IMG/VR virus record: IMGVR_UViG_2851976983_000002
Source of the DNA: a virus
Lineage: Monodnaviria; Loebvirae; Hofneiviricota; Faserviricetes; Tubulavirales; Inoviridae
Strand: one strand, 5' to 3'
DNA: 29,483 nucleotides
Shown: one piece after another, positions 1 to 29,483 of the stretch
How positions within the stretch are numbered: the first letter of the stretch is position 1
Layout of the letters: each line of letters starts with the position of its first letter
Program-made: the position numbers and the translations under genes
Notes under the pieces: model-generated
Databases searched by the model: none
The model's input: the letters and a program-made list of their open reading frames with translations, nothing else
Told to the model about the DNA's origin: nothing

Positions 1-174
1 TTAACTGATGAGTTTCTGTTTTATTCGCTGTTTTTTCCTGCCAGTGAGCTTCCTTATCTTCAGCGCAACAGGAAAAATCACTCCGGCAAACAACAGGATA
101 GCCACGCCAATCGCAGCGCCACCTATTATGTGCTTCATCAGCAGGTCTAATATGATCTCACTCCAGTTGTTCAT
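1..174 (-). CDS. Small single-pass membrane protein (57 aa) with basic C-terminal tail; toxin-like or exclusion-like accessory protein
   Basis: Start at ATG 174..172 preceded on the minus strand by GAGGGGAAGA Shine-Dalgarno; glycine-rich hydrophobic helix IIGGAAIGVAILLFAGVIFPVAL then KIRKLTGRKKQRIKQK. The 132-aa track ORF is rejected as an N-terminal extension. Confidence 0.45.
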   Translation of the reverse strand: MNNWSEIILDLLMKHIIGGAAIGVAILLFAGVIFPVALKIRKLTGRKKQRIKQKLIS

Positions 175-243
175 TCTTCCCCTCATGCTTTTGTTTTTTA
201 AATGTCCATGTAACGAAGTTGAATCGCCCTTAATCCAGTCGTA

Positions 244-323
244 CCGCACCGCAGCAGGTTGGAGGCGAAGAAGGACGACGGGAGGAGGACGCCGACAACG
301 ACAACCTGCGAGGAGCGGAGCGC
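244..323. other. Conserved purine-rich element (GGAGG-rich about 40-nt loop) closed by inverted repeat GCAGGTTG/CAACCTGC (254..261 with 302..309)
   Basis: Core gaaggacgacgggaggaggacgccgacaacgaca is identical in variant B, where flanking sequence is otherwise unrelated. Copies at 8514..8593. Confidence 0.4.
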
Positions 324-362
324 CTGCATTAACATCAGAGAGCGATGTGTTACAGGCCGGGA

Positions 363-390
363 GAAAAACCCCCGTCTTGTAACACGGGGG
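363..390 (-). terminator. Rho-independent terminator for the minus-strand regulator transcript (identical copy at 8633..8660)
   Basis: Stem CCCCCGT/ACGGGGG (369..375 with 384..390), 8-nt loop, then a T-run on the minus strand (A-run 364..368 on plus). Confidence 0.5.
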
Positions 391-476
391 TAGAGTCAAC
401 GGAAACTCAAGGGTTTCCAGTTAAACCGTATCCTTTCGATCCTTCGCGGGTAGTCTGCTGAATGCAGGAAAAGGGA

Positions 477-692
477 TCACATTGCCTTTTTTTTCTTAAG
501 TTCTTCTTTGCTTATTAGATCTTTCACCGCATCATCTAAGTAGTTGTCTATTAAGTGGTTTACTATCTCTGATGGTTTTAGTAGCTCACCTGTTTTATTA
601 CCGATTTCCAGCACTCTTCGTTTTAGCTCCAGTTTTCTGTTTTCGTTAATCCTTACGGTTGTGTCTCCGCGCTTTGTTTCTTTTTTCATCAA
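477..692 (-). CDS. Small DNA-binding regulator (71 aa), possibly ribbon-helix-helix; positional analogue of the phage repressor (RstR-like role)
   Basis: Divergent from the rep operon; AGAGGT Shine-Dalgarno upstream; beta-strand/helix/helix pattern TVRINENRKLELKRRVLEIG...SEIVNHLIDNYL. Confidence 0.5.
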   Translation of the reverse strand: MMKKETKRGDTTVRINENRKLELKRRVLEIGNKTGELLKPSEIVNHLIDNYLDDAVKDLISKEELKKKKAM

Positions 693-826
693 AATTTACC
701 TCTATGTCCTTTCAATAGAAGGTGATTATTCCATTTTTTTTACACCCGCATAGCGCATGCGTATTTACAACACGTGTTAAATGTGATTATGATGCGCGCA
801 TGCGGTAAATATATTGCGGTGCAAAC
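693..826. promoter_or_regulatory. Divergent promoter/operator region of variant A (copy at 8963..9096)
   Basis: Two copies of palindrome GCGCATGCG (753..761, 796..804) and a 10-bp perfect palindrome AACACGTGTT (769..778), AT-rich, between divergent genes. Confidence 0.4.
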
Positions 827-1024
827 ATGTCTCACGAGATTGTTTACTACGATTACATTCCTGATTATGGCGTTAATGCCTGCATTGATGGTGAATGGGA
901 TTTTTTCAGCTCGTTTAATGAGCTGGTCATTGCATGCTTAGAAACAATCGGGGATGACTTCGTTCTGGTATCTGTTGCACTGCCTTCTGGTTCATGGGTC
1001 GGTTATCAGGAGACTGTTTGCTAA
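827..1024 (+). CDS. Hypothetical acidic protein (65 aa), translationally coupled to rep
   Basis: ORF stop overlaps rep start (TAATG at 1022..1026); no recognisable motif. Confidence 0.4.
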
Positions 1025-27285: not shown

Positions 27286-27444
27286 ATGCTTTCTGAGGCA
27301 AATTTTCTTGTGACAATATCCGGCGTGGGTTCTTATCCTCCGCTTGTTGCACTTTTTGGTATATGGGCCATCAGCTGGCTTGCCGGTTTTGGCTTCGGGT
27401 ATGTGTTTTCCCTGACGAAAACACTTTTTTCATCTTTTTTGTAA
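27286..27444 (+). CDS. gIX-like small hydrophobic protein, copy 2
   Basis: Identical copy of 19264..19422. Confidence 0.4.
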   Translation: MLSEANFLVTISGVGSYPPLVALFGIWAISWLAGFGFGYVFSLTKTLFSSFL

Positions 27445-27464
27445 TAATACAGGAGTTATATATT

Positions 27465-27740
27465 ATGTCTGTTCGTGAAAAAGCAGTTACGTTCGTAAAA
27501 AAACCTCTGGTCATTGCATCTTCCCTGATGCTGGCGTCCGGTCCTGTTCTGGCTGATGATGTGAGTTATACCCCCGGACAGGCAGTTATCAGTAAAGCAA
27601 TGATTGACCCGGTGGTGAACTCCATTTTGTCAACGCTGGGCGTGGTGGGAACCGCAGCATTTCTTTTACTGGGCTTTGGCGTTTCTTTAATGATTGGTTT
27701 CCGCGTAGTTAAATCCCTCTTCAGAATGGCATCTTCCTGA
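27465..27740 (+). CDS. Major coat protein precursor, copy 2
   Basis: Identical copy of 19443..19718. Confidence 0.8.
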   Translation: MSVREKAVTFVKKPLVIASSLMLASGPVLADDVSYTPGQAVISKAMIDPVVNSILSTLGVVGTAAFLLLGFGVSLMIGFRVVKSLFRMASS

Positions 27741-27759
27741 TGCTGTTTAATTAATAATA

Positions 27760-27783
27760 CAGGGGCCGCGCGCCCCTTTTTTA
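27760..27783 (+). terminator. Rho-independent terminator after coat gene, copy 2
   Basis: Identical copy of 19738..19761. Confidence 0.6.
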
Positions 27784-27795
27784 TCAGAGGTCATT

Positions 27796-29121
27796 ATGCG
27801 GCTGTTATTTCTGCTTTTATTTCTTCCGTTCTTTTCATCTGCTGAATCATTCACAAGAACATTTGTGCCTTTTAAATTAACTGAAGCTGATGAGGTCTGT
27901 ATTTCCCGCCCGGCGCTGCAGGGGGTCACACTTTCCGGAGCGTTTCGCAGTGATAATACATGGTATGCCGTTCTGGATGGCTGTATTTATAGGGCGACAG
28001 GTGTGATTGTTGGCAGTGAAACAGGTGATGTCGCCGCTGACTGGATCCCTGTGGCAGCTTATGAGCCTTCGGATGGTGATGGCGGTGACGGGGATAACAG
28101 CGGCGGCAACGGGGACAACAGTTCCGGTGATGATAATGATAACGCTGTATCCGGTCAGGTTTCTGCTGTCTATTTGCTTGAACTTGCGGATACACTGAGG
28201 AGGCAGGAGTGTGATAATAATCCGCTGTTAATCTGTGGTTCGTTTTCAGGATATTATCCCCCGCGGGAAACTATGCCTTTATCTGAGTTGCGCGCTCACG
28301 CAAAATATTACACCTGCACTCCCAACGGTTCCGACTGGCGGACCCTTTATAACAGTACCTGTTATTTAAGGGAAGGTTATAAAATTGAGGACGGGAAAAT
28401 TGTTCCTGACAACGGTAATGAGGAAGATAACAACGGTAGTGAAGATAATAATTCCGGCAGCGAGGGCGGCAATAATTCCGGTGGTGGAAATACCGGGAGT
28501 GACGGCAATGATAATAACACCGGAAACGGGGATGACGGTCTTTCTGATGAGTGGGGAAGAAAAATATATTATCTGCTGAATGCCGGACTGCCTGCCATCG
28601 GAGACAAAATTGACAGTTTTCATAGCAGCTACATTGAACTTCAGAATAAAACCCTTGTTACCATGGATTATATGACAGAAAGGCAGGTGAAATATTTACA
28701 CAGCATTGATGAAAAATTTGGCGCACTGACAGAGCCGGATAAAAACTACTCTTCGTCTCAGGCGCAGTTTAACAGCACCATGCAGGGGATTATTGAGAAC
28801 GGAATAAGTTCAGTGGAGCAGGGCGTACAGGACCGGATTCAGGAGCTTATTCCCCTGATTGAAGATTATGTGCCTGTGCTTAATTTTTCCGGCATTATTC
28901 CTCAGGGCTTCTTCGGCAATAACAGGGATGTCTGTGTGCCACTGGATTTAAGTTTTTCATTCCGGCCTTTCGGGGGTGAGGAAATGCCCTTTAATCTCTC
29001 CACGGAAGGTGTCTGTCGTATTTATGACGGTTATCTGCGGGAGGTTATTCGCTTTTTTATTTATGTCATCACCGCAGTGTCATTAGTCATCCTGGTTGAT
29101 AAATCATTATCCGGTAGGTAA
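27796..29121 (+). CDS. gpIII-like adsorption protein, copy 2
   Basis: Identical copy of 19774..21099. Confidence 0.8.
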   Translation: MRLLFLLLFLPFFSSAESFTRTFVPFKLTEADEVCISRPALQGVTLSGAFRSDNTWYAVLDGCIYRATGVIVGSETGDVAADWIPVAAYEPSDGDGGDGDNSGGNGDNSSGDDNDNAVSGQVSAVYLLELADTLRRQECDNNPLLICGSFSGYYPPRETMPLSELRAHAKYYTCTPNGSDWRTLYNSTCYLREGYKIEDGKIVPDNGNEEDNNGSEDNNSGSEGGNNSGGGNTGSDGNDNNTGNGDDGLSDEWGRKIYYLLNAGLPAIGDKIDSFHSSYIELQNKTLVTMDYMTERQVKYLHSIDEKFGALTEPDKNYSSSQAQFNSTMQGIIENGISSVEQGVQDRIQELIPLIEDYVPVLNFSGIIPQGFFGNNRDVCVPLDLSFSFRPFGGEEMPFNLSTEGVCRIYDGYLREVIRFFIYVITAVSLVILVDKSLSGR

Positions 29122-29123
29122 AT

Positions 29124-29483
29124 ATGCCAGCTGTTTTTATGGGACTGACCGTCTTTTTTAAGGATATGATGATATTTCTGGTGCCGTTTATTTTCCGGTG
29201 CCTCCTGCGTTTTTTTCTCCTCAAGTCCGTGATTGCACTGACCACGGTCGGGGTCTGGTATGGGTTTTACAGCGTTTTTATTTCCTTCGTGAATGAAAAG
29301 TTTTCTTCCCTGATGCTGACCTCTCCGGTATTCACGCATCCGGTCTGGATCAGCGTGTCCAGCCTGTTTCCGGATAACCTTCCGGTCTGCCTGAATATTA
29401 TTACCGGCGCATGGTCGCTGTATTTTGCCTTCCGGGTGAAGGCTTTCATTCTCGGAAAACTGACACTGGGTTTAATGAAGTAG
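29124..29483 (+). CDS. gpVI-like minor coat protein, copy 2 (stop codon is the last triplet of the window)
   Basis: Identical copy of 21102..21461. Confidence 0.7.
   Translation: MPAVFMGLTVFFKDMMIFLVPFIFRCLLRFFLLKSVIALTTVGVWYGFYSVFISFVNEKFSSLMLTSPVFTHPVWISVSSLFPDNLPVCLNIITGAWSLYFAFRVKAFILGKLTLGLMK

Follow-up and report, generated by a model that had tools for sequence, protein, structure and literature searches.

The stretch of DNA considered here, IMG/VR virus record IMGVR_UViG_2851976983_000002 with a length of 29,483 nt (referred to as the window, which means the whole stretch, with unit phase counted from base 1), consists of two related types of filamentous prophage, A and B, which follow one another head to tail in the order A-A-B-B. 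Its units are joined at one and the same putative phage attachment site (attP). The array comprises the following units.

1-8270, plus strand: unit A1, a complete A-type inovirus genome, identical to 8271-16540.
8271-16540, plus strand: unit A2, with the genes of A1 shifted by +8270; the list of open reading frames (ORFs) repeats at the 8270 offset.
16541-24562, plus strand: unit B1, a complete B-type inovirus genome of 8022 nt, delimited by period and gene content.
24563-29483, plus strand: unit B2, partial (4921 nt, 0.61 unit), identical to 16541-21461, with the genes of B1 shifted by +8022.

Self-comparison of the whole window at a shift of 8270 yields no mismatch between 1-8270 and 8271-16540. 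At a shift of 8022, there is no mismatch from 16440 through the window end, and just before 16440 mismatches occur only at 16411, 16422, and 16439, where they separate the A tail from the B tail. B1 and B2 are the same at every comparable base. Since a chance origin of exact 8-kb repeats is impossible, the repeats are real, and the window is confirmed to be a head-to-tail A-A-B-B array of two related filamentous prophages. This agrees with an earlier note on this DNA, which had described two 8270-bp A units followed by about 1.6 B units of 8022 bp, with exact identity within either type and all junctions at one attP-like site. That note had also placed the copy number and the chromosomal flanks beyond the window, and indeed the window contains neither host DNA nor an Escherichia coli dif site (up to three mismatches allowed), the absence of the latter being expected for the interior of an array. 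The further statement that the first base of the window is also the exact start of a unit holds by construction and is uninformative; the predicted crossover is located 87 nt upstream of this start. Either end of the window falls on the end of a coding sequence, namely the stop codon of a minus-strand 57-amino acid ORF at 1-3 and the stop codon of the pVI gene at 29481-29483, at which B2 stops (the ORF 29124-29483 ends on the last base of the window). This suggests that the window was trimmed on gene boundaries, as a prophage caller would do. Prophage callers are described to mis-delimit arrays of the integrative mobile elements exploiting Xer (IMEX) type (PMC12715192), which fits a window that is cut in mid-array.

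All three junctions carry one identical 101-nt sequence. The coordinates of its copies, and of the two sites recognised in the first of them, are given below.

8170-8270, plus strand: A1/A2 junction, predicted attP hairpin; predicted XerC crossover between 8183 and 8184.
16440-16540, plus strand: A2/B1 junction, identical 101-nt hairpin; predicted XerC crossover between 16453 and 16454.
24462-24562, plus strand: B1/B2 junction, identical 101-nt hairpin; predicted XerC crossover between 24475 and 24476.
8173-8204, plus strand: attP site 1, AGTGCGCATAA-TGTGTTACACG-TTATGTTGAA, XerC-arm-like and XerD-arm-like sequences with an 11-nt spacer.
8241-8266, minus strand: attP site 2, inverted, AGTGCGCACAA-TGACG-TTATGTGTAA, with a 5-nt spacer.

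The layout of the 101-nt element is GCC-AGTGCGCATAA-TGTGTTACACG-TTATGTTGAAAAGGCCGCTGCG-(loop)-CGCAGCGGCCTTTTTACACATAA-CGTCA-TTGTGCGCACT-GGC. As single-stranded DNA (ssDNA), it is predicted by DNA folding to adopt a single long stem, from which 6 nt of the spacer bulge out; the hairpin energy is -44.7 kcal/mol versus -15.8 ± 2.7 kcal/mol for shuffled sequence (z = -10.5). A 15-bp GC-rich stem lies between the two dif-like sites of the hairpin, and the 43-nt core of the hairpin shows no variation among the units, whichever of the five types examined they belong to. The first three bases of the spacer beside the XerC arm, TGT, are identical to the start of the dif central region TGTATA, which is what strand exchange on the XerC side requires; the dif spacer measures 6 bp (PMC3089051). 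Judged by its sequence, the junction element is an attP of the CTXphi type, with two inverted XerC/XerD-like sites that would fold on the (+) strand.

At the A2/B1 junction, the A-type single-nucleotide polymorphisms and the tail duplication of A run to 16439, and B-type sequence begins at 16541. The switch from A to B is, thus, contained in 101 identical nucleotides and not in the 5.3-kb module that both types share, which argues for site-specific insertion; as a target of homologous crossover, the module is fifty-fold larger than the 101-nt element, and no chimeric unit is present. Pfam scans of A, B, and the overlapping ORFs revealed no integrase or transposase domain in any ORF of the window. 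No recombinase of the element's own is, thus, recognised, and the host XerCD recombinases would be used instead.

Either unit starts with a replication/immunity cassette. In the A type, it includes the following features.

1-2587, plus strand: A-type replication/immunity cassette, unrelated to that of B (16541-19171) save for one 90-nt patch.
1-174, minus strand: small 57-amino acid ORF directly after the hairpin; WP_001409659.1 in strain 503025, no Pfam or PHROG match.
477-692, minus strand: divergent 71-amino acid gene in the RstR position, putative A regulator; phrog_2503 (function-unassigned family), E = 1.5e-27, no Pfam match.
827-1024, plus strand: 65-amino acid ORF upstream of the gene for the replication initiator (Rep); phrog_3104, E = 3.5e-25, annotated in strain 503025.
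994-2220, plus strand: RstA-like rolling-circle initiator (Rep) of A; Pfam Rep_trans, E = 1.5e-21, annotated start in strain 503025 at 1024.
2224-2565, plus strand: 113-amino acid gene in the RstB/gene V position; phrog_14411 (function-unassigned family), E = 2.7e-49, no Pfam match.

The A Rep is 33% identical to RstA of CTXphi over 92% of the length (E = 2e-51). Compared with a replication region of the RstR/RstA/RstB type, Rep of A is RstA-like, and the flanking A genes are without recognisable family in Pfam and PHROG, the matches of the 71- and 113-amino acid genes being to families of unassigned function. From its position, the former (477-692) is a putative RstR-like regulator and the latter (2224-2565), likewise from its position, a putative ssDNA-binding protein. 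The B cassette is composed as follows.

16541-19171, plus strand: B-type replication/immunity cassette, delimited by BLAST of A versus B.
16832-17107, minus strand: helix-turn-helix (HTH) repressor of B, in the 91-amino acid form called on related contigs; the open frame reaches 17377.
17246-18373, plus strand: gene II replication protein of B, 375 amino acids; Pfam G2P_X_C, E = 1.5e-19, and Phage_CRI.
18386-18748, plus strand: gene V ssDNA-binding protein of B, 120 amino acids; Pfam Phage_DNA_bind, E = 2.3e-6.
18807-19136, plus strand: B-specific ORF of 101-109 amino acids; no family match in Pfam or PHROG.

The B repressor matches phrog_4441 and phrog_638, both of which are HTH regulators (E = 6e-17 to 6e-18), and, weakly, Pfam HTH_26. 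The gene II protein is 48% identical to gene II of phage If1, and the exact protein is found on 13 other contigs. According to these assignments, the replication/immunity cassettes of A and B are unrelated, with an RstA-like Rep_trans protein in the one and an If1-like gene II protein, a gene V protein, and an HTH repressor in the other. Because a Rep needs its own origin, and phages whose Rep proteins are unrelated have the remaining genome in common, the cognate (+) origin of A would be located within 1-2587 and that of B within 16541-19171. The sole similarity between the cassettes is a GC-rich 90-nt patch of 87% identity (236-326 versus 16636-16723, also 24658-24745), which reads GGAGGCGAAGAAGGACGACGGGAGGAGGACGCCGACAACGACA; this patch also matches small 2-kb plasmid records with 81-92% identity.

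The remainder of either unit is taken up by a virion and export module on the plus strand, which is complete in both types (coat, pIII, pVI, pI/Zot, and pIV secretin), so that the full morphogenesis module that the earlier note had ascribed to both is intact. Its features in A1, including the non-coding tail, are the following.

2576-2838, plus strand: two small hydrophobic ORFs of 33 and 52 amino acids in the pVII/pIX position; no family match; the shared module starts at 2588.
2859-3134, plus strand: major coat protein precursor, 91 amino acids; phrog_17608 over the full length, weak match to phrog_1859 ('major head protein'), annotated in strain 503025.
3190-4518, plus strand: pIII adsorption protein, 442 amino acids, with Gly/Asp/Asn-rich linkers; Pfam Phage_Coat_A, E = 2.4e-10.
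4521-4880, plus strand: pVI-like minor coat protein, 119 amino acids; phrog_27651 over the full length, weak match to phrog_1944 ('minor head protein').
4888-6144, plus strand: pI/Zot assembly ATPase, 418 amino acids; Pfam Zot, E = 1.2e-9, 32.5% identical to pI of M13/f1.
6154-7374, plus strand: pIV secretin, 406 amino acids; Pfam Secretin, E = 1.8e-25, 52% identical to the secretin of CUS-1 in UTI89.
7597-8174 (also 15867-16444), plus strand: non-coding tail of A, a tandem duplication with copies of about 270-310 nt, 7597-7864 being about 84% like 7865-8174.

The counterparts in B1 are given with their amino acid differences from A.

19264-23955, plus strand: morphogenesis module of B1, all genes intact according to the ORF list.
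19264-19422, plus strand: 52-amino acid ORF, 1 difference.
19443-19718, plus strand: coat protein, 5 differences.
19774-21099, plus strand: pIII, 15 differences.
21102-21461, plus strand: pVI, 0 differences.
21469-22725, plus strand: pI/Zot, 9 differences.
22735-23955, plus strand: pIV, 2 differences.

The pIII protein is annotated as 'phage attachment protein, G3P family' in strain TW10573. By BLAST, the A sequence 2588-7864 (about 5.3 kb) is 96.9% identical to B, and the tail 89%. The earlier note had let A and B differ by scattered substitutions in shared genes. Substitutions in the shared genes are present, albeit in patches, with clusters in the coat gene, the N-terminus of pIII, the C-terminus of pI, and the non-coding tail, and with two substitutions in the 1250 nt of 4338-5587; to these is added the whole non-homologous replication/immunity cassette. 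Such patchy divergence points to past recombination between the types and not to uniform divergence. The tail of B is present in a single copy, at about 24178-24461, which accounts for most of the 248-nt difference in length between A and B. Each tail copy contains a small palindrome, CCTTATAAC-TTTCCCAG-GTTATAGGG. Because the tail element is common to phages with unrelated Rep proteins, it is less likely to be a (+) origin; at a guess, it could be a packaging signal or a minus-strand origin.

Given a Zot ATPase, pIII, small coat proteins, the canonical gene order, an HUH initiator, and units of 8270 and 8022 nt (the genome range used for the family being about 5-15 kb), A and B are to be classified as Inoviridae. 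The base composition of the units is a mosaic, with 37-40% GC in the replication cassette of B, 41-45% in that of A, and 53-56% in the pI/pIV region (e.g., 17001-19000 versus 5001-7000), which is consistent with modules of different origin. Long antisense or overlapping ORFs, including a 310-amino acid ORF on the minus strand (5128-6060), gave no match in Pfam and, located in a GC-rich stretch, are treated as spurious. In Rfam, no family was matched anywhere in the window.

Prophage units with 100% identity to A are present in the enterotoxigenic E. coli (ETEC) strains E24377A, 503025, 503440, 503829, and TW10573; 100.0% identity of the unit among ETEC strains of different collections suggests that it has recently spread by horizontal transfer. 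Directly after hipBA, strain 503025 has at least five to six A copies. The left attachment site (attL) of this array consists of GGTGCGCATAA joined to TGTGTT..., with the junction reading ...tatactGGTGCGCATAA joined to TGTGTTACACG..., which is the chromosomal XerC arm plus the phage spacer. The right attachment site (attR) consists of ...AGTGCGCATAA joined to TGTATATTATGTTAAAT, i.e., the phage XerC arm plus the dif spacer and XerD arm, by which dif is re-created with one outer-base change. The same attL and attR occur on a metagenome contig (L007) that encodes the exact B Rep protein; the B-type unit on it is flanked by a truncated gene upstream and by fimbrial genes to the right. In these relatives, attL and attR are the products expected of XerC-side exchange. 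Frameshifts affect pIII and Zot in some of the A copies of strain 503025, and in the copy closest to dif the small regulator gene is a longer variant.

The closest relatives of B are the B' units of E. coli JNE112863 (97%) and of metagenome contig L006 (95%). Strain JNE112863 possesses, beside hipBA, an array of the order C-C-B'-B'-B'..., with units of 8329, 8329, 8112, and 8111 nt. The array of strain JNE25-005, likewise next to hipBA, has the order C(with ISEc31)-C-D-D-A'-A'..., with measured lengths of 8049 nt for C, 8916 and 8917 nt for D, and 7924 nt for A'; its D unit carries a 'replication endonuclease' cassette. In both arrays, adjacent units of the same type are at least 99.9% identical and differ mostly by single-base insertions or deletions, and adjacent units of different type are 94-96% identical in the shared module. 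Of 5426 complete E. coli genomes, 71 contain the 101-nt hairpin element, in up to 10 copies (median 2); among the genomes with the identical element, most have at least two. As far as can be read from these genomes, the A-A-B-B pattern is a recurrent biological arrangement and not a peculiarity of a single assembly.

Between JNE25-005 and JNE112863, at least four non-homologous replication cassettes are seen on the same chassis (meaning the invariant attP hairpin together with the 94-97%-identical virion/secretin module), namely an RstA-like cassette, two gene II types, and the 2-kb 'replication endonuclease' cassette, the last of which is accompanied by a protein with a TolA C-terminal domain. 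On its right, the cassette has a fixed boundary directly ahead of the genes for small membrane proteins; on its left, the boundary varies, the sequence common to the types extending 97 to 478 nt past the hairpin start. A circular 'plasmid' record from the same strain, pJNE25-005_3 (NZ_AP045060.1, 9613 nt), comprises one phage unit plus ISEc31 and the hairpin and matches the IS-bearing first unit of the JNE25-005 chromosomal array; it is probably a free replicative form. The gene calls of this record are fragmented and its identity to the shared module of the window is 88-92%, which suggests a low-quality consensus. Neither A nor B had a megablast match among 50,697 phage records. A pI-based search for related loci among species-representative genomes found none, that search reaching close relatives only, and nothing specific was found in the literature on this lineage in ETEC.

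Based on these data, the window would represent the interior of a chromosomal Inoviridae array at a dif site, which would have arisen from successive XerC-catalyzed ssDNA integrations of heteroimmune phages and would allow rolling-circle production between copies of the same type. We consider this interpretation to be probable, with good confidence. Its model is CTXphi. There, attP1 and attP2, which are unequal in design (PMC3089051) as are sites 1 and 2 of the window, pair with each other in the (+) strand and so create the actual attachment site, at which XerC exchanges one pair of strands with dif (PMC3089051, PMC4439123). Replicating CTXphi genomes almost always insert several times in tandem, since dif is restored at the right end; duplex DNA masks the left site, hence excision is blocked, and progeny genomes are made between tandem copies in a manner resembling rolling-circle replication (PMC4439123).

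We infer that the CTXphi mechanism applies to the window array. A and B would share one attP, in that the 101-nt element of the (+) strand would fold to mimic a dif duplex. Host XerC would swap one strand pair between hairpin and dif just after the XerC arm, where TGT is common to both, and replication would then fix the insertion. By this reaction, the whole hairpin would be left at the left end of the prophage, and a working dif would be re-created at its right end. The next genome would enter the re-created dif, so that the junction would be composed of the XerC arm of the previous unit and the spacer of the incoming unit; insertion in this manner makes a phage-phage junction equal to the circular phage sequence, devoid of a chromosomal scar. 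Most likely, A would have been acquired first, in multiple insertions, while the heteroimmune B, endowed with a different repressor, Rep, and origin, would have escaped control by A and inserted later on the dif side, more than once. Multiple insertions per infection, by A and then by B, would result in homotypic blocks. The duplex left site with its 11-bp spacer would not serve as a Xer substrate, and prophage excision would not occur. Catalysis by XerC only, on the folded strand, and the lack of Xer excision are suggested by the 11- and 5-nt spacers together with the work on CTXphi (PMC3089051, PMC4439123).

For phage production, rolling-circle synthesis would start in the cassette of one copy (n), traverse the virion genes and the hairpin, and end in the cassette of the next (n+1), with A1 to A2 yielding phage A and B1 to B2 yielding phage B. 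Given unrelated Rep proteins, no phage is expected from the interval between A2 and B1, and a type that is present once would be silent. Silence of single copies would be a simple reason for blocks of at least two units per type. The need for tandem copies in phage production, which the earlier note had drawn from CTXphi-type arrays, would accordingly extend to both types here by analogy.

Several points weigh against the dif-array interpretation. Neither attL nor attR nor host genes are found within the window, and the chromosomal location and true copy number of its array are taken from relatives. The exact identity of the copies could partly stem from consensus polishing of a repeat. The attL and attR sites would look identical after double-strand integration of the VGJphi type, the ssDNA route being deduced from the hairpin design only, and the (+) origin positions of A and B are predictions. 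For Ypfphi, superinfecting genomes are reported to insert preferentially between resident copies (PMC4266046), so that the left-right order need not equal the order of acquisition.

Three other explanations have to be set against these data. If the array were an assembly artefact, i.e., a non-chromosomal concatemer that the assembler made out of free replicative-form circles or by collapsing or expanding repeats, same-type copies would be perfectly identical, as repeat polishing gives, and a host flank would be lacking, both of which is the case. Free circles do occur, as seen from the 9.6-kb circular 'plasmid' record of a related unit in JNE25-005, and short-read assemblies collapse these phages into contigs of 2-12 kb. 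However, over-assembly of a single circle gives no switch from A to B, and a chimeric join via the 5.3-kb module would make hybrids, whereas the switch is located in the 101-nt attP and the units are intact. Moreover, independent complete genomes show block arrays that are anchored to hipBA and dif, and an artefact is regarded as highly improbable. A real array might, alternatively, have been built or resized mainly by homologous recombination, through Campbell-type insertion of a replicative form or unequal sister-chromatid exchange. With 5.3 kb at 97% identity and identical same-type copies, ideal RecA substrates are available; the copy number varies from 2 to 10 among strains, the patchy A/B divergence shows past recombination between the types, and a Ypfphi review invokes this process for copy-number change and insertion between copies (PMC4266046). 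Recombination of B into A would, however, give chimeric units, of which none is seen, and the switch maps to attP; in addition, the outer ends of related arrays bear precise XerC-type hybrid sites. As the main builder of the array, homologous recombination is, thus, deemed unlikely. It may change the copy number inside the blocks, and to this extent it is partly compatible with the XerC-based explanation.

The third possibility concerns the substrate of the reaction. As in VGJphi, the double-stranded replicative form would recombine reversibly via site 1 alone, and tandem copies would not be needed for phage production. The attL and attR sites of the relatives are equally compatible with a duplex substrate, and single-copy prophages exist, e.g., in E24377A. 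In duplex form, however, the spacers measure 11 bp (site 1) and 5 bp (site 2) versus 6 bp in dif, and the inverted second site and the 15-bp GC-rich stem would be without a role, yet the 43-nt core is invariant throughout the five unit types. A homologous hairpin is kept in the otherwise unrelated CUS-1, and most genomes carry at least two copies. Integration of this kind is, for these phages, considered improbable, and the folded (+) strand is favored as the substrate.

On a broader scale, A and B might belong to an unnamed inovirus lineage of E. coli, mostly from human diarrhoeal or ETEC-type strains, that combines one chassis with at least four non-homologous cassettes, uses dif arrays as the place of exchange, and has its blocks of at least two units enforced by a Rep that would terminate only at its own origin. 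This proposal is a tentative one, which we would not yet favor. Such a lineage appears to be undescribed in the searchable literature, the phenomenon of tandem dif arrays itself being already known. No new mechanism is revealed by the window; its main value is that of a clean E. coli example of CTXphi-type array biology, which would extend the cholera-phage paradigm (hairpin attP, XerC-driven scar-free tandem insertion, and production from tandem copies) to a phage lineage that is found in about 1.3% of complete E. coli genomes (71/5426), classic ETEC strains included. Arrays of this kind are mis-delimited by prophage callers and collapsed by short-read assemblies. The left-right order of the blocks may record the order of infection, and the array lends itself to testing, in a natural setting, whether Rep/origin cassettes that are unrelated but share a chassis are autonomous within one array.

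In comparison with known systems, the B type resembles Escherichia phage If1, a non-integrating I-pilus phage, in its gene II protein (48% identity) and in its ssDNA-binding protein of the gene V type. The rest of the B genome has no similarity to If1 at the DNA level.

CUS-1 of E. coli O18:K1:H7 and Ypfphi of Yersinia pestis share with the present phages the insertion point and orientation, beside hipBA at dif, and the gene order, which comprises reverse-strand accessory genes and repressor, Rep, ssDNA-binding protein, coat, pIII, pVI, Zot, and secretin. Ypfphi occurs in tandem arrays of 2-4 copies, and a hairpin attP of the CTXphi kind has been proposed for it (PMC4266046). The attP hairpin of CUS-1 is homologous to that of the window, in that both have an 11-nt spacer, the GGCCGCTGCG stem, and a second site in inverted orientation; in UTI89 (NZ_CP064825.1) it is located at 2343-2440 of the retrieved locus, with an intact dif at the far end (11930-11956). 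In a tblastn comparison with CUS-1 of UTI89, only the secretin (51-52% amino acid identity) and the C-terminal part of pI (30%) are related, and Rep, the ssDNA-binding protein, coat, pIII, and pVI gave no match at E = 1e-3 or better. On this result, membership of A and B in the CUS-1/Ypfphi group, the two members of which are 99% identical to each other at the nucleotide level, was rejected. Since the hairpin is homologous and the proteins save the secretin are unrelated, the attP module seems to move between inovirus lineages.

The UPphi phages (UPphi901) are likewise dif-integrated E. coli inoviruses and occur in tandem doubles, triples, and quadruples (PMC7307601). In the UPphi array of E. 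coli ECONIH2, two identical copies are followed by a variant third one, according to an A-A-B logic (PMC7307601). UPphi has a size of 7.56 kb and about 70% amino acid identity to IKe/I2-2 over the covered genes (PMC7307601). The pI protein of the window is less than 60% identical to that of every phage record and 32.5% identical to pI of the Ff phages. Membership in UPphi was rejected indirectly, from its published description, given this 32.5% identity of pI to Ff and the lack of a DNA match in the phage collection. Sequential integration at dif into arrays of different elements is also a feature of the heterologous IMEX arrays of Vibrio, which are present in 12.6% of the genomes analysed there and contain up to six units (PMC12715192). 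Unlike those arrays, which mostly consist of unrelated elements (such as a CTX-I inovirus and a double jelly-roll phage), A and B have one and the same attP and a virion module that is 97% identical between them.

With CTXphi arrays, the window array shares the inverted dif-like attP sites predicted to fold on the (+) strand, the lack of an integrase, the re-created dif seen in relatives, multiple scar-free head-to-tail insertions, and, in A, a Rep with 33% identity to RstA. It is unlike them in its E. coli host, in the absence of toxin genes, and in that A and B differ by whole non-homologous Rep/origin cassettes and not by the repressor region alone. Heteroimmune CTX variants reportedly co-reside in one array (Davis et al. 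1999; Davis & Waldor 2000). Because the Rep/origin cassettes of A and B are wholly different, hybrid virions of the Davis-Waldor kind would not be expected here. From the likeness to CTXphi/RS1 arrays that the earlier note had proposed, the CTXphi part is retained, in view of the CTXphi-type attP and of the dif-derived attL and attR of relatives, while the RS1 part is to be given up, neither type being a satellite: an assignment as RS1-type satellite was rejected, as A and B both possess intact coat, pIII, pVI, pI, and pIV genes. The better analogue and closest precedent would be the heteroimmune CTX-CTX arrays or the mixed IMEX arrays.

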